NCBI GenBank assembly: GCA_050118235.1
Contig: JASFLF010000001.1
Coordinates: 1 to 28,394, forward strand
DNA: 28,394 bases
Direction of reading: 5' to 3'
From: Gammaproteobacteria bacterium
GTDB taxonomy: Bacteria > Pseudomonadota > Gammaproteobacteria > SZUA-152
Position 1 is the stretch's first letter; each line of letters starts with the position of its first letter. Below the pieces are notes generated by a model. The model was not told the DNA's origin, did no database searches, and saw only the letters and a program-made list of their open reading frames with translations. The translations under genes and the position numbers were made by a program. Shown here one piece after another: positions 1,984-22,411 of this stretch.

Positions 1984-3231
1984 ATGAATAGAAGGCAATT
2001 TCTTAAATATTCCACGGGCATAGGCGCCATGAGTCTGGCGCTGAATGGTTGTCGCTACTGGCCCGCAGAAGGATTATTAAATCCGTGTTTGCCGGACAAC
2101 CTACCCCACGAGCTAAAAAATCATGATGTGGTGCAACGCGCATGGCAGGGCATAGACGTTGATCAGTTCTGGGATTGTCATACGCATTTAATCGGCTTGG
2201 GCGACAGCGACTCGGGAATCTGGGTCAGCCCGCATATGCGATCGTTGTTGCATCCCATTCAATTTACGCAGTTTACATTTTATCTAAACGGTTCCTGTGC
2301 GGATTCGAATGATGCGCAAGAGACGCAAACCATTGATGAGCGATTCGTTAACCGCTTAGTACGATTGCATGATGATTTTCCTAAAGGGGCGAAATTCATG
2401 TTGATCGCATTTGAGCATCATTATGACGGCGAAGGCAAACAGCGTGATGATCTAAGTCCTTTTTATACGCCGAATCACTATGCCGCTAAAATAGCCGGAC
2501 AGTATCCGCAGCGGTTCGAATGGATCGCATCGGTACATCCTTATCGTGAAGATTGTCTTGCCATGTTGCAATGGTGCGTGCGCAACGGAGCCCGCGCAAT
2601 CAAGTGGTTACCGGGTGCTATGGGAATCGATCCAGGCTCGCGAAAATGCGATCAATTTTATGAAGCTGTGGCCAAGTACAGGATTCCGCTGTTAACTCAT
2701 AGCGGCGAAGAGCAAGCGGTTAGTGTCAGCGGCAGCGAAGGTTTGAATAATCCTTTGTTAATGCGTCGTGCCTTGGAACATGGTGTGCGGGTGATATTTG
2801 CGCATTGTGCATCCCTGGGGGAAAGTGTGGATTTAGACAAAGGCCCTAATGGGGCTCGGGTCAGCAATCTGGATTTGTTTTATCGATTGTTGGCAGAGAA
2901 GAATTACCAAGAGCGGCTGTACGGCGATATCTCGGCGATTACCCAAGTTAACCGAGACAAAGCCGTCATTGAGGCCATTTTCACGCGTACTGAATGGCAC
3001 GCCAATCTGATCAACGGTTCGGATTACCCTTTACCGGGAGTGTTTCCAATTATTTCCACTCAGAGTTTTGCGGATTGGGGATATATTCAACAGAGGGAGG
3101 CCGATGTTTTGGCGCAAATTCGCCGTTTTAATCCTTTGTTATTCGATTTTGTGCTTAAGCGTATCATTAAAGTCAATGCCAACAGATTGGCCCCGGCTGT
3201 TTTCGAATCTCGGCGCGTTTTTTCCGCCTGA
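1984..3231 (+). CDS. Amidohydrolase-family metalloenzyme with Tat signal, possible lipoprotein
   Basis: The ATG at 1984 gives MNRRQFLK (twin-Arg), a hydrophobic stretch and LNGC (atypical lipobox). Metal-binding motifs: DCHTH, THSGEE, AHCAS, GSDYP. The ORF-track start at 1939 is probably too early. Confidence 0.8.
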   Translation: MNRRQFLKYSTGIGAMSLALNGCRYWPAEGLLNPCLPDNLPHELKNHDVVQRAWQGIDVDQFWDCHTHLIGLGDSDSGIWVSPHMRSLLHPIQFTQFTFYLNGSCADSNDAQETQTIDERFVNRLVRLHDDFPKGAKFMLIAFEHHYDGEGKQRDDLSPFYTPNHYAAKIAGQYPQRFEWIASVHPYREDCLAMLQWCVRNGARAIKWLPGAMGIDPGSRKCDQFYEAVAKYRIPLLTHSGEEQAVSVSGSEGLNNPLLMRRALEHGVRVIFAHCASLGESVDLDKGPNGARVSNLDLFYRLLAEKNYQERLYGDISAITQVNRDKAVIEAIFTRTEWHANLINGSDYPLPGVFPIISTQSFADWGYIQQREADVLAQIRRFNPLLFDFVLKRIIKVNANRLAPAVFESRRVFSA

Positions 3232-4986: not shown

Positions 4987-6000
4987 ATGAAACACACACT
5001 CTGTGTCTATCGGGGAGCTGCACTTGCTCGCTATGGTTTCGGTCATGGTCATCCGTTCAGCCCCGATCGGCTTGATGCTTTCTATCAGGAATTCCAACAG
5101 CAACAACTTGCCCATCACCCGGCGATTACGCTATGCGATCCTTGCCAAGCCTCGCAGGAACAGATCGAATGGTTCCATGATCATGACTATGTGGAAAAAG
5201 TAAAACAGCTCTCAGAGGTTGGTTTGGGGTTCCTGGACAATGGTGATACACCGGCTGTCAAAGGAATTTATGAAGCGGCGGCGACCGTGGTGGGTACGGT
5301 GTTGGACGGTATGGAGCGAATCATGGCAGGCCGGTGCGATAAGGTATTTATACCCATCGCCGGCCTGCATCATGCGAGCCGCAACAGTGCCGCCGGGTTT
5401 TGTGTGTTTAACGACTGCGGCGTGGTTATCGAAGCATTGCGCCGCTGTTATAACATAAAGAAAATCGCTTATGTGGATATAGATGCACACCACGGCGACG
5501 GCGTGTTCTACAGTTTCGAAAACGATCCGGATTTGTATTTTGCGGACTTTCACGAAGATGGCCATTACTTATATCCGGGCACTGGCTTTGACGATGAAAC
5601 GGGCAAAGGGCCGGCTAAAGGCACAAAGCTGAATATCAACATGCCTCCGGATTCCAATGATGAGGACTTTTTGGAGAAATGGTCCGAGGTGGAGGCGTTT
5701 TTCGAATCACATGCGCCTGAGTTTGTTTTGTTCCAATGTGGTGCCGACAGCATTGCCGGCGATCCCATTACTCACTTGCGTTATACCCCCCAAAGCCATG
5801 CGTATGCTGCTGAGCGTTTGTGCTATCTGGCGGATAAATACGCCCAAGGGAGGCTGTTGGTCATGGGAGGTGGGGGATATAATCACAAAAGTCTGGCACG
5901 GGCGTGGTGTGCCGTAGTGGATAAGATGGCAAATTATCCTGGCAGTACACTTAAAAAGAATTTTTTACCACGAAGCCATGAAGAGCACGAAGAAATTTAG
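4987..6000 (+). CDS. Histone deacetylase / AcuC-family zinc-dependent deacylase
   Basis: GHGHPF, GLHHA, GFCVFND, VDIDAHHGDG, YPGTG, QCGADS..GDP and GGGGY. GGGAGG ribosome-binding site upstream. Confidence 0.9.
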   Translation: MKHTLCVYRGAALARYGFGHGHPFSPDRLDAFYQEFQQQQLAHHPAITLCDPCQASQEQIEWFHDHDYVEKVKQLSEVGLGFLDNGDTPAVKGIYEAAATVVGTVLDGMERIMAGRCDKVFIPIAGLHHASRNSAAGFCVFNDCGVVIEALRRCYNIKKIAYVDIDAHHGDGVFYSFENDPDLYFADFHEDGHYLYPGTGFDDETGKGPAKGTKLNINMPPDSNDEDFLEKWSEVEAFFESHAPEFVLFQCGADSIAGDPITHLRYTPQSHAYAAERLCYLADKYAQGRLLVMGGGGYNHKSLARAWCAVVDKMANYPGSTLKKNFLPRSHEEHEEI

Positions 6001-6184
6001 ATAAGTATTTTTCGTAGTGGTGAATCCTTTGTCGGTGGGCATTACTCTGTAGGGAATCGAAGGCTAAAGTGGCCACATAAAGGCCCCATTCTCATTGCCT
6101 CGTAACATTTGAAAAAATTTCACATGAAGTGTTTTAAAAGATTTTTTTCTTCGTGTTCTTCATGGCTTGGTGGTGAATGGCAAT

Positions 6185-6220
6185 AAAAAAGCCTCACGGT
6201 GGTGATCCGCAAGGCTTTTT
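6185..6220. terminator. Bidirectional intrinsic terminator-like hairpin
   Basis: AAAAAAGCCT-CA-CGG-TGGTGAT-CCG-CA-AGGCTTTTT: a GC stem with an A-run on the left and a T-run on the right. Confidence 0.7.
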
Positions 6221-6242
6221 GACGTTGTTGAAACGAATGGAC

Positions 6243-6302
6243 TCAGTAACCTGGCGCTTTGGCACCTCCTCCATAAGTCCCACACATACAGTCATTAGAC
6301 AT
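6243..6302 (-). CDS. Putative 19-aa small peptide MSNDCMCGTYGGGAKAPGY
   Basis: Minus strand reads AAAGGAGGTGATCC-T-ATG TCT AAT GAC TGT ATG TGT GGG ACT TAT GGA GGA GGT GCC AAA GCG CCA GGT TAC TGA, followed by a terminator. Too short for the ORF track. Confidence 0.5.
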   Translation of the reverse strand: MSNDCMCGTYGGGAKAPGY

Positions 6303-6303
6303 A

Positions 6304-6317
6304 GGATCACCTCCTTT
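6304..6317 (-). promoter_or_regulatory. Extended Shine-Dalgarno sequence
   Basis: AAAGGAGGTGATCC is the reverse complement of GGATCACCTCCTTT, the conserved 3' end of bacterial 16S rDNA. Confidence 0.7.
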
Positions 6318-6575
6318 CATCAGGGTTACTACAAACCGCTCCGCAAACACCCCTGGAAATGAAGTGGAGCAGCGCCACCAAAATTCTATAAGTAGTAATC
6401 ATAGCCCAGAATCGGAAAATGTAAAACACTAAAAATAATTATAAATAAATTAGTAAGATAGCTCTATTTTGAAGTCGATTAATTGGCACTGTGGTGCTGT
6501 TGTGGGAATACTATGTTGTTGTTGAGCACTATTGGCATCGCCAATGCACTTTGCGTTTAAATTCCAGCAAATGGA

Positions 6576-9500
6576 TTGCGTATGTCTCAACATTTTCAGC
6601 ACAACGCCAAGGATAGGCAAAGTCAGCCGCTGTTTCTTGGCACTTGGATTGTTGTCGTCGTTTTGCTCATCACCGCTTGTACAGGGGGTGGGGGAGATGG
6701 CGGTTCGCCACCAGTCCGTAAATCGGCGACTCCCCAAACGCCGGCCAACCTCAACGCCATTGCCGGCAATCAACAGGTGACACTAACTTGGGGGACAGTG
6801 CCCGACGCATCCGGTTATACGCTGTATTGGAATAATACGCCTGATGTGGCTAAAGATTCTTCCCATGTGGTGCGAAACGTCTCTCCAGGCTATCGGCATC
6901 AGGAATTGACCAATGGTCAGGTTTATTTTTATCGAATTGCCGCCGCTAATGGCAGCGGCGAGAGTTTGCCCTCCGATGAAATCACCGCGATGCCCGGGGG
7001 ACACACACTTGCCGATACGGTGACGGATGCTAATCTTCGCCATTGTTTAACGAACTACAGCACCAGTACACCTGTTTATGCCGATACGATTAGCGGTGAA
7101 GTGGATTGCTCTTACCGCGGTATAAATGATCTTGAGGGCTTGCAGTTTTTAGCGGCACTGACGGCGCTTAATTTAGCCGGTAACAATATTCAAAATATTT
7201 CCGCATTAAGTCAGTTAAGTTCACTGACCACTTTGGACTTAAGTGGTAATCAACTTAACCGTGACGCGGAAGCTGTGTTAGAGGCTTTGTTCCAATTTGG
7301 GGCCTTGACGCAGTTGTCGATAGCAGGCAATCCGCAGCTGTCCTGCGCGTTCATCGATGCTATGCTCGATACCATTTCAGCTACCGATATTTCCGCCAGC
7401 GAAGCTGGTGTGAATTGCGCCGTTTACAGTCAAACACCGGCACCCATAGGTACATTAACGCCGGTGGCCGCTAAAGCCATCGGCGGCAATGAGAAGGTAA
7501 CCGTGACATGGGAGGAAGTGACTGGTGCTTCGCATTACAACATTTATTGGGGTACCGCAAGTGGAATAACCACAGAGTCGGAAAACGTCATCGCCGGTGC
7601 ACATCCGCCCTATGTGCATTCGGGATTGTCTAACGGTGCTACGTATTACTATGTGGTCACCGCGGTGTCCGGTGGCGCTGAAGGGCGGCTATCACCGGAA
7701 GTCTGGGCGACGCCCAGCAGTGAAGGTACGGCCATTGACGGTGTGTTTACCGATACCAACTTGCAATCCTGTGTTTCGGACTACGCGGTCGGCAAAGGGT
7801 GGACATTTACTCATGAGATAACCGGTTACCTGGACTGTTCCTCTCGCGCCATTTCGGATTTGCAGGGCATTGGGCAGTTGCCGGAGCTGTCCCAGTTGAA
7901 CGTCATGAATAACGCCATTGCCGATACCACGCCGCTGGCGACATTGACCAATTTGACGCGGCTGTATATCAGTAACAATCAAATCGATAGTCTAGTTGGG
8001 CTGGCGGATTTGTCATCATTGAATTTCCTTAACTTAGGGCGTAACCGTATCACCACGGTAAATGCGCTGGCGGGATTAGACAATCTCACAGCGTTGTATC
8101 TCAACAGCAATCAAATAGTGGACGCGGGAGCGTTGGCCGGCCTGATAAATTTGCAGATACTGGACTTGCGCGAAAACTCTATAGGTGGCGAGGATATTGG
8201 TAACATCGATGAATTGGCGAGCCTGGTAAATGCAAGCTCTATCTTGTTAGCGGGTAATTACGATATTGCGTGTACGGAACTGGCTGCATTGTTTACCGCC
8301 CTGGGGCCGAATATTGTGGATATCGCTGCCAACGTGGCTAGTATTGATTGTATAGGCGTGCCCAATCCTCCGCTAAATGTCAGTGCGGCCGGCGGCAATC
8401 AGCGCGTTATTCTAACTTGGGATAATATTATCAATGCGTCGGCGTATAACATTTATTGGTCCAATTCGCCCGCGGTAAGCATATCGTCCGCAAACAAGAA
8501 AGCCAATGTTCGCTCCGGCTACCAACACACGGCGCTAACCAATGGGCTTGCGTACTACTATGTAGTGACAGCCGAAAATGCCAGCGGTGAGAGTGAAATA
8601 TCACAGGAAGTTTCCGCCGTGCCTCAGCAAGTGGTGATCGCCGGTTTGTTTGCCGACAGTAATTTACAAACCTGCATAGAAGAGCTGGCTTCGATGAACG
8701 GATGGACTACGGCTGAGCAAGTCAGCGGGGTAGTAAATTGTTCCGCCAGGGCAATTTCCGATGTAAGCGGAATTGAGCATTTAACCGGCGTTACGGCATT
8801 ATCCTTAAATGAAAACAATCTCACCGACATTACCGCCATAGGCTATCTGGATAAGCTTCGTTCGCTGTCGCTGTACCGCAATAACATCACCAGTGTGGAT
8901 GCGCTGGTTAATATGACGGCTTTGCGTGATTTGTTTATTAGCAATAATCTCATCAGCAAAGTACACCCCGTGGGGAGCCTGCCGCAGTTGCAAGTGGTGG
9001 ATTTGCGCAATAACCGGATTGGCAGTAGCGGCAGTGGCGGTGTGGACCAACTCACTTCGCTGACAAACGCCACACTGATCAGCGTGTCTGGCAACCCATC
9101 TATATCGTGTATTGAATTGCAGAATCTGCTGGACACACTGGGTGCCAGTGTAATTGATATGAACAGCGCCATAGCCGGCGAGAATTGCACCCGGCCTTCG
9201 CTAATACCCGCGGGTATCCAGGCAGTGGGCGGTAACAGCCAAATCAGCTTACGCTGGGTTGAAGTGCCGGTGGCTACTGCGTATAACATTTACTGGGCTA
9301 CGGTATCGGGCGTGACACCTGCCAGTGGGCAGAAGGTAACCGTAACGTCACCACAATATGCGCACACCGGTTTGGATAACGATACGACGTATTATTATGT
9401 GATTACGTCGCAGTTGGCCAGTGGACAGAGCGCGCCGTCTGAAGAGCTTGCCGCACGACCTTCGGCCAATGGTGTACCGTTGGCGGGCTTGTTTCCCGAC

Positions 9501-10241
9501 CGGGCATTGGCCAAATGTGTGAATGCGCTTGCCAACAGCAATGGCTGGTCTTATGCGCTGGAGGTCAATGGTATATTAAATTGTTCCGCACAGCAGATTA
9601 CGGACCTGAGCGGCTTGGAACAGTTAAGCAACTTGAGCGTGTTGCGCTTGGGCAGTAATAACATTGAAGATATTTCTTCTGTGGCGTCGCTGGGCAATTT
9701 GACTTTCTTGGACTTATACAACAATGCCATTAGTGACGTCAGTGTTTTGTCTGGTCTTAACACTTTGCGCACCTTGTATCTGCATAATAATAATATTTCC
9801 GATATCAGTGCATTGGCGGGGTTGAACAATCTGGACTATTTGATCCTGGATGAAAACGCGATCAGTGATCCCACGCCGATTACCGGCATCAACACGCTAA
9901 CACGCTTGTTTTTTCGAGCCAATTTGTTAACCGACGTCAACGCTTTTGATCAGTTGACGCAGTTGACAGAGCTTTATTTGAACAACAACAGCATTACCGA
10001 CGTGAGCGCGTTGGCGGGTATGGTGTATTTGCAACAACTGGATTTACGTAATAATCATATTGGTGGTCAAGGGGTGGGCAATGTCGACACGTTATCGAGC
10101 CTCACCAATGTCAGCAAGATACGTCTATCGGGAAACAACTTGATTTCCTGTACCGAGTTAACCTCTTTGATCGCGGTGTTGGGGCCCAACGCTACCGACC
10201 TGGGTGAAGCCCAGCTAGGGGTTAATTGTCAGGCACCGTGA
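6576..10241 (+). CDS. Large lipoprotein with four tandem FN3 + leucine-rich-repeat modules (internalin-like LRRs)
   Basis: Hydrophobic WIVVVVLL, then lipobox ITAC, then a GGGGDGG linker. Four FN3-like units (GNxxVxLxW...YxxYW...YYY/F) are each followed by DxxLxxC...C-capped LxLxxNxI repeats ending GNxxISC...C. Start may be 6576 or 6582. Confidence 0.88.
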   Translation: MRMSQHFQHNAKDRQSQPLFLGTWIVVVVLLITACTGGGGDGGSPPVRKSATPQTPANLNAIAGNQQVTLTWGTVPDASGYTLYWNNTPDVAKDSSHVVRNVSPGYRHQELTNGQVYFYRIAAANGSGESLPSDEITAMPGGHTLADTVTDANLRHCLTNYSTSTPVYADTISGEVDCSYRGINDLEGLQFLAALTALNLAGNNIQNISALSQLSSLTTLDLSGNQLNRDAEAVLEALFQFGALTQLSIAGNPQLSCAFIDAMLDTISATDISASEAGVNCAVYSQTPAPIGTLTPVAAKAIGGNEKVTVTWEEVTGASHYNIYWGTASGITTESENVIAGAHPPYVHSGLSNGATYYYVVTAVSGGAEGRLSPEVWATPSSEGTAIDGVFTDTNLQSCVSDYAVGKGWTFTHEITGYLDCSSRAISDLQGIGQLPELSQLNVMNNAIADTTPLATLTNLTRLYISNNQIDSLVGLADLSSLNFLNLGRNRITTVNALAGLDNLTALYLNSNQIVDAGALAGLINLQILDLRENSIGGEDIGNIDELASLVNASSILLAGNYDIACTELAALFTALGPNIVDIAANVASIDCIGVPNPPLNVSAAGGNQRVILTWDNIINASAYNIYWSNSPAVSISSANKKANVRSGYQHTALTNGLAYYYVVTAENASGESEISQEVSAVPQQVVIAGLFADSNLQTCIEELASMNGWTTAEQVSGVVNCSARAISDVSGIEHLTGVTALSLNENNLTDITAIGYLDKLRSLSLYRNNITSVDALVNMTALRDLFISNNLISKVHPVGSLPQLQVVDLRNNRIGSSGSGGVDQLTSLTNATLISVSGNPSISCIELQNLLDTLGASVIDMNSAIAGENCTRPSLIPAGIQAVGGNSQISLRWVEVPVATAYNIYWATVSGVTPASGQKVTVTSPQYAHTGLDNDTTYYYVITSQLASGQSAPSEELAARPSANGVPLAGLFPDRALAKCVNALANSNGWSYALEVNGILNCSAQQITDLSGLEQLSNLSVLRLGSNNIEDISSVASLGNLTFLDLYNNAISDVSVLSGLNTLRTLYLHNNNISDISALAGLNNLDYLILDENAISDPTPITGINTLTRLFFRANLLTDVNAFDQLTQLTELYLNNNSITDVSALAGMVYLQQLDLRNNHIGGQGVGNVDTLSSLTNVSKIRLSGNNLISCTELTSLIAVLGPNATDLGEAQLGVNCQAP

Positions 10242-11102: not shown

Positions 11103-11684
11103 TTATTTCGTTGGTTGAAGAGTGAATTTCGCGATTTCGGTGTATTCCGCACCGGTTGGCTTGAGTTCGCTTTTGAACAGAATGACATGGTCTATGGGCA
11201 TTGTTGTTGTATCAGTCACTGCTAATAAACCCTCCAGGCCTTTTACAGGCTTGCGGAAACGACCCACCGTGATATGACCCCGGAACGGCCTTTCTTCGGG
11301 AGTGACGCCCGCCTCAACCGCCAGCGCTTCCATGGCTTCGGCTATCTGTTGCAACACAGCGTTTTTGTGTACTAGCGACGCCAGCATTCTCGCTTTCTTG
11401 ACGCTGGGAAAAGGCTGGGGGGAGGTGATCGTGACTGTGAAGACGGATTGACTTTCCAAAAAAATTTTTAAGCCGGCTTGGATTTGTTGTATTTGTTCCA
11501 AGTACAAGTCTCCAAGAAAGCGCATCGTAATGTGTATGTTGGATTCGGCTGTCCAGCGGATATGCTTAATCCAGGGATCTTTGCTATGTTGGTGTTTGAA
11601 ATTGTCTATAAATGCCAAGGCCGTTTCGCTGAGCTTTATGCCGATAAATGTGCGGAATTTTTCGGTGTCGGTAGTCATGGACAA
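11103..11684 (-). CDS. thpR: RNA 2',3'-cyclic phosphodiesterase (2H phosphoesterase, LigT-like)
   Basis: Two HxT motifs (HITMRFLG, HITVGR), RTFIGI and LFKSEL. Confidence 0.9.
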   Translation of the reverse strand: MSMTTDTEKFRTFIGIKLSETALAFIDNFKHQHSKDPWIKHIRWTAESNIHITMRFLGDLYLEQIQQIQAGLKIFLESQSVFTVTITSPQPFPSVKKARMLASLVHKNAVLQQIAEAMEALAVEAGVTPEERPFRGHITVGRFRKPVKGLEGLLAVTDTTTMPIDHVILFKSELKPTGAEYTEIAKFTLQPTK

Positions 11685-20218: not shown

Positions 20219-22411
20219 TCATTGCAACGAAAAATAAAATACCGCACCTTCACCCGGCTTGCTTTCTGCCCATATTTTACCACCATGGCGGTCAATGATT
20301 CTTTTGACGGTGGCCAGGCCAATGCCGGTTCCGGGGAATTCGTCAATACCGTGTAAACGCTGAAACGCACCAAATAGCTTTTCCGAGTATTGCATGTTAA
20401 ATCCAACGCCATTATCTTTTACAAAGTATATGCAATGAGCATTATCCAGCCTGCAGCCGCACTCCACCATGGCGTCGGTGTTTTGGCCGGTATATTTCCA
20501 CGCGTTATCCAAAAGATTGTCCATGACAATTCGTAGCAATCTTTGATCGCCTTTGGTATTCATGTTGGGCTCAATTTTTATGGTGATCTTGCGTTCCGGG
20601 TATAGTTCCGCTAAAGATGCTGCCGCTTCTTCGGCGATATCGCTCAAATTAACCGGTGCAATTAATAGCTTGTGACGGGATACGCGCGACAATAGCAGTA
20701 TATCATCAATAAGTTGCGCCATACGCTGGGCTGCCTTTCGTACCCGGTTTAGATAGTCGATACCGTGTTCGTCCAGTTTATCCTGGTAGTCTTCCAATAA
20801 TAACTGACTGAAACCATCGATGCTTCTTAAGGGTGAGCGTAGGTCGTGGGAAACGGAATAACTGAAGGATTCCAGTTCCCGTATCGCACCTTCCAATTCC
20901 GCGGTTCGTTCCGAAACCATGTGTTCCAGTTGCTCACGGTAGCGCTTCAGTTCTGACTCAGTTTGCTTGCGCTGTTTTATGTCACGTACGAACACCACGC
21001 CGGAAGGTTCGCCATCCCATTGGCTGATAAATGCGGTCAGTTCCACCGGAACCGGTTCGCTGGATTTTTTATCGGTAAACAACGTTTCGTATTGGATAGG
21101 CTCATTCTGACCTTTTAGGCGTCGCTTGAATCGTTGTACTACGTTATCTTTTTCGCTGGGGTGTACCACATAATCGAGATCCGATCCTATGATTTCGTCA
21201 ACCGTGGTATTTAATATCTCGGCCATGTGCTGATTGGCGAAAACATGTTTGCCTTTTTTGTTGACCAAAATGCCATCGGTGGCGTTGTTGGCCAGAGAGC
21301 GCAAATTTTCCTCGCTTTCTTTAATTCGTTTTTCATTTCGGATACGATCACTAATGTCCGTTGTAATCCCACATATCGCATAAACATCATTGTTTATATC
21401 GAACAGACAAAATTTTGTTGAGATAAACGTCTTTAGCTCTTCTCCGTGAGGGACAATTTCTTCAATCTGTTGAATGGACTTGCTGGCTATCACTTTTTCG
21501 TCATTCGCCCGTAATTTATAGGCTATTTCTTGCGGAAATAACTCATAATCCGTTTTTCCCAGGAGGTGTTCCTCAGTGCTATCGAAAAAATCTGCAAACT
21601 GCTTATTAGCCAGCAAATATTTACCGTCCTTGTCTTTGGCGTAAATGATCGTTGGAGAATTATCCAAGATGGCTTGCAATAAATTTTCGTTTTCTCTTAA
21701 TGAGTCCTCTCCATTGCGTAAAGCAGTAAACAACTTGCTAATTGTCGCGCTCAGCTCTCCCACTTCGCCGGTAAAGCATGGAATAGGCGTAATTATACGA
21801 TGATTATCAATGTACTCAGTAACCGCGGTGGAAAGAGTCTTCAAATTCTTAGTTAAGGATGATAATAAAATGTAGAGAATAATAACCGTGGCCGTTACGA
21901 TGACCAGGGCGTCAATAATGTCTCTTTTTCGCACACCGGATACCAGGTGGTTTATGTCATTGGTGCTGAATTCCAAATGGAGTTCACCTACTGGAGTGTT
22001 GTTCTCCCGAAGTGGGAATACCACGTGAAACGAATCTTTGCCACCCAGGTTTTTTATGTTGCTCAACAAATCTCGATTGATGGGTGTGGATTGCCTGGCA
22101 ATGCCTGCTTGAGCAATAGTCTCATGGTCCGCCGATTTAACCGCGATGAAATTAGCGTTATGAGATTTACCAACACGCTTTACAATTTCAAGAATTTCCT
22201 CAATATCGTTATGTCTTATCGCTGAGACCAAAGTCGATGATATGAGCGTTGAAAATTCCGATATTTCTTCTTGTTTTTGTAATAGTAACTGATCCTTTGT
22301 GAGGTTGATGTCGTTCCATACCAGCAGGGAAAAAAGCACCATTTCTACAAACGCAATAGTAATGATCAATTTGGTGACTAGAGATACATCGCGATTGGAA
22401 AGTAATTGCAT
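20219..22411 (-). CDS. Membrane sensor histidine kinase with two PAS domains (orphan)
   Basis: Two hydrophobic segments and a HAMP-like linker. PAS regions ILDNSPTIIYAKDKDGKYLLAN and LANNATDGILV. H-box YSVSHDLRSPL, N-box NLLDNAWKY, G boxes VKDNGVGF and GTGIGLA. Confidence 0.92.
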   Translation of the reverse strand: MQLLSNRDVSLVTKLIITIAFVEMVLFSLLVWNDINLTKDQLLLQKQEEISEFSTLISSTLVSAIRHNDIEEILEIVKRVGKSHNANFIAVKSADHETIAQAGIARQSTPINRDLLSNIKNLGGKDSFHVVFPLRENNTPVGELHLEFSTNDINHLVSGVRKRDIIDALVIVTATVIILYILLSSLTKNLKTLSTAVTEYIDNHRIITPIPCFTGEVGELSATISKLFTALRNGEDSLRENENLLQAILDNSPTIIYAKDKDGKYLLANKQFADFFDSTEEHLLGKTDYELFPQEIAYKLRANDEKVIASKSIQQIEEIVPHGEELKTFISTKFCLFDINNDVYAICGITTDISDRIRNEKRIKESEENLRSLANNATDGILVNKKGKHVFANQHMAEILNTTVDEIIGSDLDYVVHPSEKDNVVQRFKRRLKGQNEPIQYETLFTDKKSSEPVPVELTAFISQWDGEPSGVVFVRDIKQRKQTESELKRYREQLEHMVSERTAELEGAIRELESFSYSVSHDLRSPLRSIDGFSQLLLEDYQDKLDEHGIDYLNRVRKAAQRMAQLIDDILLLSRVSRHKLLIAPVNLSDIAEEAAASLAELYPERKITIKIEPNMNTKGDQRLLRIVMDNLLDNAWKYTGQNTDAMVECGCRLDNAHCIYFVKDNGVGFNMQYSEKLFGAFQRLHGIDEFPGTGIGLATVKRIIDRHGGKIWAESKPGEGAVFYFSLQ

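Follow-up and report, generated by a model that had tools for sequence, protein, structure and literature searches.

The minus-strand unit at positions 6425-6185 of the window, the whole 28,394-nt stretch of gammaproteobacterial DNA analysed here, is best explained as an independently transcribed, structured and translation-gated mini-mRNA of a conserved family that lies outside the Rfam models and is distantly like CC2171, a reading suggested by sequence comparison and held with somewhat less than even confidence. An earlier note on this DNA had taken the region for a novel ncRNA motif or a translation-coupled RNA switch, which fits a conserved structured RNA with a tiny, translated-looking open reading frame (ORF) that falls below every Rfam threshold. 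In the mechanism that we propose, access to the Shine-Dalgarno sequence (SD) would be set by competition between the anti-SD of the ribosome and anti-SD mimics inside the RNA. For most members of the family the mimic would be CYUCC in codons 9-10, which is also the 5′ arm of helix P3 and would be held there by an SD-like 3′ arm. A ribosome translating the 13-14 codons would have to melt P3, P4 and P1, so that translated and untranslated molecules would differ in fold and probably also in stability or in the segments that they expose; the output of such a switch could be the peptide, RNA stability or the exposed RNA segments. The window would hold an atypical copy, in which a mimic in the terminator loop (10 of 11 positions) can mask the SD instead of a lost internal mimic.

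Should the family prove to be what it looks like, it would form a conserved class of structured RNA in several phyla, abundant in marine metagenomes, and supply a large natural set of ORFs seemingly starting at isoleucine codons behind a maximal SD. Isoleucine start codons are very rare in bacteria. Such a family would also be a reason to re-examine CC2171-type “non-coding” small RNAs (sRNAs) as tiny mRNAs. The element offers a compact natural system for SD/anti-SD competition and for the opening of stop-codon pseudoknots by ribosomes, and the window copy has its anti-SD mimic placed elsewhere, in the terminator loop, the internal one being absent. The family apparently has no name in Rfam or in the literature: the portions of the literature on CC2171, structured-RNA discovery and AUC start codons that were available held no description of it, and the SD string occurred there only in 16S primers.

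Promoter, terminator and neighbouring genes

The unit reads as a gene that stands alone, with a promoter and a terminator of its own, giving an RNA of about 205 nt from the minus strand. A sigma-70-like promoter at 6398-6425 (TTTACA, a 16-nt spacer and TATGAT; 10 of 12 hexamer matches) would place the transcription start near 6391, and promoter-like boxes can be read at an equal distance in relatives. Between promoter and SD lies an untranslated leader of about 90 nt. The unit ends at 6185-6216 in an intrinsic terminator, a 10-bp hairpin (stem 6216-6207/6199-6190, loop AUCACCA 6206-6200) followed by a U-tract to 6185; the hairpin was recognised in the RNAfold fold and does not appear in the output of a simple terminator scan. 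The gene downstream, of the histone-deacetylase family (4987-6000), lies on the opposite strand and converges on the unit, and the gene upstream, for a 1221-residue LRR/fn3 protein, starts at 6576 and diverges from it, so the unit stands alone. The terminator hairpin, taken as 6185-6222, has an A-run on one flank and a T-run on the other, with UGGUGAU as its plus-strand loop, and could thus also terminate the convergent histone-deacetylase-family gene. The 1221-residue protein (6576-10241) begins with what looks like a signal peptide and has fn3 plus leucine-rich-repeat blocks repeated four times; at the locus of the genus mate (L002) the LRR/fn3 gene is missing between the element and the LigT/DUF3025 genes.

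Flanking genes vary from locus to locus, with the downstream gene often convergent, and no conserved neighbour was found: around 16 relatives the genes have nothing in common and in many cases lie on the opposite strand. One member lies beside a gene of the MbnB/TglH/ChrH family (RiPP-modifying; L053 2-550) and another upstream of a heavy-metal P-type ATPase gene (L036 2-871), neighbourhoods that do not recur in the other loci examined. Eight marine contigs (L060, L066, L071, L078, L099, L103, L116 and L129) carry a conserved box, TGTTATATAAA, immediately before the element's 5′ tail; in this one clade the box looks like an extended −10 element, consistent with independent transcription. RNA-library contigs from four studies cover the element and, as assembled contigs that carry no strand, ends or level, give weak support to its expression: an identical 272-nt contig corresponds to 6090-6361 and a 152-nt contig to 6225-6372, and two further contigs are strain variants. 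Near-identical copies of the element occur in several metagenomes and RNA libraries.

Distribution of the family

The family is patchily distributed, in Gammaproteobacteria, Desulfobulbaceae, MAGs of the PVC group and many marine metagenome contigs. A BLAST-type DNA search of 40 relatives gave six true loci; L007 and the weaker matches below it are not family members. The covariance model R1, built from the BLAST-found loci, places the element in 7 of the 32 genomes of the window's family; the order consists of the same 32 genomes, so that the order-level search adds none. A motif scan over one genome per species returned 27 loci: 17 of gamma type, six of a Sphingomonadales type, one uncertain and three chance matches. 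The 17 gamma-type loci come from MAGs or isolates labelled Thiohalomonadales, Gammaproteobacteria, Amphritea, Motiliproteus, Oceanicoccus, Cellvibrionales, Pseudomonadales, Acidiferrobacteraceae, Ectothiorhodospiraceae, Desulfobulbaceae, Lentisphaerae and Kiritimatiellae. Within the family of the Amphritea record 4 of 121 genomes carry the element, and across 150 other families of the class a covariance-model search added one true member (L176), a further match (L177) being false and inside a coding region. Each of the five carrier genomes checked has a single copy.

A metagenome scan with a pattern that left the start codon free matched at least 80 loci. Among the matches listed, R1 recognised 43 of the 74 loci checked with it and had no match at E ≤ 0.01 for the other 31; six listed loci were left out of this check. 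Several R1-negative loci lie in long open frames and one is the end of a 16S gene. A scan of viral contigs gave one match, judged to be chance, and nothing convincing. Member counts overstate independence, since many of the sequences are close relatives, and most members were collected with patterns fixing CAGGGG, CCCTG and the SD.

The window scores 113 bits with R1, a model for which it was itself one of the source sequences, and 82.5 bits with R2, built from 68 hits. It has the features that define the family (hairpin P2 with CCAGGGG in its loop, CCCUG, GGAGGUGAU(C/U) followed after 2 nt by a start codon, a short frame and a terminator) and is atypical in its 19-codon ORF and its missing internal CYUCC.

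Conserved helices and a candidate pseudoknot

The best supported helix is the hairpin P2 (6338-6370), with its 5′ arm at 6370-6361, its 3′ arm at 6348-6338 and the loop CCAGGGG at 6356-6350. Its base is the GCUCC/GGAGC hairpin to which the earlier note had drawn attention. Compensatory changes are found at 8 of 11 pairs among seven sequences and at all 11 among 65 distinct homologues. In the alignment of these 65 sequences, which was fitted to P2 and P3 and thus favours them, the two helices have 86.8% of their cells paired, vs 60.0% in shuffled and 37-44% in slid controls, and all 19 pairs show changes on both sides. The window's own P2 is weakened by mismatches, GCUCC/GGAGC and a few further pairs being formed; among the RNA-library contigs the strain variant X19 restores three mismatched pairs, and X15 mends one pair and breaks another.

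CCAGGGG is constant in the P2 loop, and 3-12 nt before the SD sits CCCUG (6321-6325 in the window), likewise invariant. CCCUG is present in every member found by covariance model and in 17 of the 17 gamma-type members, which were collected with a pattern that did not contain it. Loop and CCCUG would form an H-type pseudoknot just 5′ of the SD, a pairing that we infer, because both strands are invariant and hence cannot covary. The strands of this candidate pseudoknot are the only invariant segments of the family, the stretch that joins P2 to CCCUG being variable.

The ORF ends within a hairpin domain closed by P3; in the window this helix is GGACU 6280-6276/AGUCC 6243-6239 (domain 6239-6280), in a register 1 nt off that of the family alignment. 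The domain also encloses an inner hairpin, GGUGC/GCGCC (6266-6262/6257-6253), and the 3′ strand of P1 (AGCGCCA, 6258-6252). For about half of the members the inner hairpin P4 shows the stop codon in a loop, UUGACGC, five bases of which pair with the 5′ tail to form P1. The long-range pairing of UGGCGCU (6371-6377) with AGCGCCA in the earlier note is this family helix, formed in about 30 of the 65 aligned rows and with moderate covariation. P1 and P4 have 78% of their cells paired (slid controls of P1, 17-48%), all five P1 pairs change on both sides, and the P1 5′ strand follows the stop codon: GCGUC with UGA, GCGUU with UAA and GCGCU with UAG. Shuffle tests of P1 in single sequences were not significant, p ≤ 0.05 being reached in 4 of 54 members.

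Another proposed helix, AGUAACCCUG (6330-6321) with CAGGUUACU (6245-6253), fared differently. The complementarity is real, with one bulged G, as are all four complementarities in the earlier note, each present on the minus strand at its position on inspection of the sequence. It is, however, specific to the window. The relatives have CAGGUU at this place as the 3′ arm of P4, and where CAGG changes to CAAG the P4 partner compensates and CCCUG does not; the helix is therefore unsupported, CCCUG and CAGGUU being better explained by the pseudoknot and by P4. Folded by itself, the window's RNA does not stand out (z −1.31; 23 of 200 shuffled sequences do equally well), so that the case for structure rests on the comparison of homologues.

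A short frame behind a maximal Shine-Dalgarno sequence

The mini-ORF of the window (6243-6302, minus strand) runs from ATG to TGA (stop at 6245-6243) and encodes MSNDCMCGTYGGGAKAPGY in 19 codons, relatives having 13-14. Across 56 distinct members the frame opens two bases after GGAGGUGAU(C) and comprises 13 codons in 16 members, 14 in 35, 11 in two, 15 in two and 19 in the window only; it is closed by TGA (20), TAG (19) or TAA (17). Of 55 members, 54 have frame 0 open over 11-15 codons, against 16 and none for the other two frames. Indels between the start codon and P3 are whole codons, and the members of one marine subgroup have nothing in common in their final three or four codons, yet seven of eight stop after codon 14. 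The frame thus has the look of one that is read by ribosomes.

Start codons among the matches listed for 38 metagenome members, which were collected with a pattern that left the start codon free, are ATC (22), TTG (8), ATT (3), ATA (2), ATG (2) and GTG (1). All 18 genome-derived members start with ATG, which the search pattern imposed on most of them, those from BLAST or the covariance model excepted.

The main rival to a translation-gated mini-mRNA is a plain small-peptide gene, in which the 13-14-residue peptide would be the product and the helices would serve mRNA stability and efficient initiation; we regard it as unlikely, though of real weight. The conserved length of the frame and the in-frame indels suit this alternative, as does the marine ATC clade (21 sequences), where codons 2-10 vary mostly at their third positions (entropy 2.03/2.68/4.12). 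No such excess is seen in the 35 other members (12.5/10.9/12.9), and the apparently synonymous sites of the marine clade fall in the loop of a predicted small hairpin. A loose consensus of 13-14 residues can be written, M-[SN]-[SN]-x-[SC]-I-x-G-A-S-[GE]-x-x-x, in which G-A-S recurs across clades, but its codons are fixed at the nucleotide level (GGA GCC UCC) and lie within P3, and conservation between clades is weak, some peptides differing as strongly as MSERLIEQTPGQAC and INSQSIKGASGYLS.

Predicted masking of the Shine-Dalgarno sequence

The SD of the window, AAAGGAGGUGAUCC (14 nt; 6304-6317, minus strand), is maximal: its complement is GGAUCACCUCC, which we take to be the 3′ end of 16S rRNA and which is consistent with the 16S gene end found at locus L088. 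Family members have a perfect SD of 13-14 nt. Its last base is not invariant, since the members found by covariance model alone (L176 and L184-L186) carry GGAGGUGAUU in place of GAUC; a G-U pair with the 16S tail is still possible there.

The earlier note's central claim was that the terminator carries an antisense copy of the SD. The mimic, GGAUCACCACC (6208-6198), differs at one of its 11 positions from the reverse complement of GGAGGUGAUCC (6314-6304), a 10/11 match, and consists of the 7-nt loop AUCACCA with two stem pairs on each side. Matches with at most one mismatch to the 11-mer complementary to the SD number four in the 28-kb window, vs 0.23 expected, and none of 100 shuffles reached four; two of the four belong to the element itself. 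The other 10/11 matches to this 16S-tail-like 11-mer (GGATCACCTCC) lie on the minus strand at 11421-11431, inside a LigT-family gene, and at 21562-21572. The SD-terminator duplex of the window is predicted at −16.8 kcal/mol (z −4.1 to −4.5 against shuffled terminators). The copy is thus non-random, but it is not a feature of the family: the SD-terminator duplex has a median of −7.85 kcal/mol and reaches z ≤ −2 in 1 of 54 members, the window alone, so the mimic is real in the window and lineage-specific.

What most of the family shares is a complement within the ORF. For the duplex of the SD with ORF bases 16-39 the median energy is −12 kcal/mol, and 38 of 54 members reach z ≤ −2, so that masking of the SD in cis, as the earlier note had suggested, holds for the family through the internal complement and not through the terminator. 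The most conserved ORF segment, GGAGCYUCCG (codons 8-10), is the P3 5′ arm and contains the anti-SD-like CYUCC, and the P3 partner arm of CYUCC is SD-like; CYUCC could instead have been retained for P3 pairing or for its Gly-Ala-Ser codons. RNAfold gives a mean predicted probability of 0.80 that the SD is paired in the members, with a partner upstream (0.41), within the ORF (0.26) or downstream (0.04); that the upstream partner prevails over the one in the ORF speaks against the proposed switch. In the window the upstream partner is an anti-SD-like CACUUC (6360-6365, minus strand), which in the minimum-free-energy fold pairs with GAGGUG of the SD and excludes P2 (probability 0.77 that the SD is paired with upstream sequence).

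The window's internal complement, at −2.9 kcal/mol, is among the three weakest of the 54. Its internal mimic has been lost (UCC to UAU) together with the usual stop (AAA at codon 15), and a mimic stands in the terminator loop instead, which can plausibly mask the SD in place of the internal one. The genus mate L002 has −8.5 kcal/mol internally and −11.2 kcal/mol at the terminator, with z about −2.

These figures also bear on an improbable but reasonable alternative, that the window copy is a decaying or drifting variant whose terminator/SD complementarity is functionless, perhaps inherited and shared with the terminator of the genus mate. The lost stop (the sole 19-codon case among 56), the lost internal CUUCC and the weak, mismatched P2 would be expected of such a copy, and the terminator of L002 is indeed related (GCGGAU..CACCACC), at just −11.2 kcal/mol. 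The SD, start codon, CCAGGGG, CCCUG and P1 are nevertheless intact, near-identical copies recur in several metagenomes and RNA libraries, and a 10/11 match is unlikely to arise by chance.

A fold-back that hides the SD had led the earlier note to hok and aapA, type I toxin mRNAs in which long-range 5′-3′ pairing can hide the ribosome-binding site. That the unit is such an mRNA, or a leader-peptide attenuator or riboswitch for a downstream gene, is barely credible. Long-range 5′-3′ pairings and the potential for SD masking do exist, the order of ORF, hairpins and terminator resembles an attenuator, and two marine members have sub-threshold Rfam matches to Leu and Thr leaders. The defining features nevertheless fail, namely a hydrophobic toxin, a conserved SD fold-back and a consistent co-oriented downstream gene. 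The peptide, 13-19 residues long, is not hydrophobic, as the earlier note had already observed: neither MSNDCMCGTYGGGAKAPGY nor its relatives have a hydrophobic stretch, and the peptide is unconserved between clades. The fold-back does not hold beyond the window, the only one of 54 members with a significant terminator complement, and P1 joins the 5′ tail to the stop-codon loop without involving the SD. A scan for consensus promoters, the one search made for a plus-strand antisense RNA, found no plus-strand site within 6185-6400 and no antisense promoter within the element; the downstream gene lies on the opposite strand here and in many relatives, with varying identity, and the codons of no single amino acid are enriched.

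Relation to CC2171 and other known systems

CC2171 (RF01867) is an alphaproteobacterial small RNA, and it is the recurrent weak match of the family in Rfam. No Rfam 15 model reaches its gathering threshold on the window, and at permissive thresholds nothing in the window and the 40 relatives lies above a gathering score; CC2171 scores 22.4 bits on the window (E 0.019; gathering score 75), 26-35 bits on other gamma-type members and up to 61.6 bits on the Sphingomonadales loci, and a search of the window's own genome with RF01867 gives no match at E ≤ 0.01. Aligned to the CC2171 consensus, the window matches its maximal SD, start codon, UCU CAU, structured domain and terminator. The consensus, GAAAGGAGGUGAUCC followed by 2 nt and GUG UCU CAU, has the same maximal SD, spacing and first codons as the element, and CC2171 likewise stands alone, with a structured domain closed by a helix beginning near codon 3 and a terminator; unlike the element, its model has no 5′ P2/pseudoknot domain, and its ORF length and 3′ domain differ. 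We treat the likeness as an architectural resemblance, not as proof of homology. The Sphingomonadales loci (L034, L035, L037, L038, L042 and L052) are CC2171-like, with frames of 18-19 codons (MSHGSA...HYR) behind the same maximal SD. These conserved frames suggest that CC2171 may itself be a tiny mRNA; in the part of the source seen it is treated as a non-coding sRNA, expressed according to Northern blots and of unknown function (bioRxiv 10.1101/2022.01.24.477521).

The element could alternatively be a trans-acting sRNA of the CC2171 type, with an incidental ORF and with its SD-like and CCAGGGG segments serving as seed or protein-binding sites, which we judge very unlikely. Its own promoter and terminator, its lack of conserved neighbours and its weak CC2171 matches (22-35 bits; 61.6 in Sphingomonadales) agree with this, as does the confirmation of CC2171 expression by Northern blot (bioRxiv 10.1101/2022.01.24.477521), and the window's own genome has a second copy in which the 3′ domain is preserved, with no SD and a stop at codon 4. 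A frame open in 54 of 55 members, with three types of stop and variable last codons, is hard to explain without translation.

Structured RNA, pseudoknot and mini-ORF also occur together in the odc1 motif of the Breaker laboratory, whose mini-ORF has a fixed length of 11 residues and a UUG start; this motif regulates in cis and is invariably found upstream of a single gene family (PMC8632094). The element shares with what is described there a conserved structure, a pseudoknot (here a candidate), a mini-ORF of fixed length and a non-canonical start, but differs in having no conserved downstream gene, a perfect SD and, in many members, AUC, AUU or AUA starts.

Two further systems offer partial parallels to the translation-gated mini-mRNA. 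Translation of a short ORF remodels SD/anti-SD hairpins in ermC-type leader attenuators, and the AUU start of infC is sensed by IF3, the use of near-cognate starts depending on initiation fidelity. The element is like them in its short ORF amid SD/anti-SD hairpins and its near-cognate starts, and unlike the ermC leader it has no second SD with a downstream ORF under control. A bolder proposal, which we consider rather improbable, is that the class of AUC, AUU, AUA and UUG mini-ORFs, behind a 13-nt perfect SD in a stand-alone RNA with two pseudoknots and a stop codon paired to the RNA's own 5′ end, would serve to sense or buffer the translation apparatus (for example initiation fidelity through IF3, or free-ribosome availability) instead of as a peptide gene or conventional sRNA, with CC2171 as its alphaproteobacterial branch.

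The second, degenerate copy in the window's own genome lies at L028 1501-1571 (G000:C20:12087-12157, minus strand). It has kept the 3′ domain, its SD is deleted and its frame reads ATG TCT AAT TGA. About 870 nt upstream of it, on the same strand, is a group II intron (RF02005 and RF00029 matches at 2439-3071).
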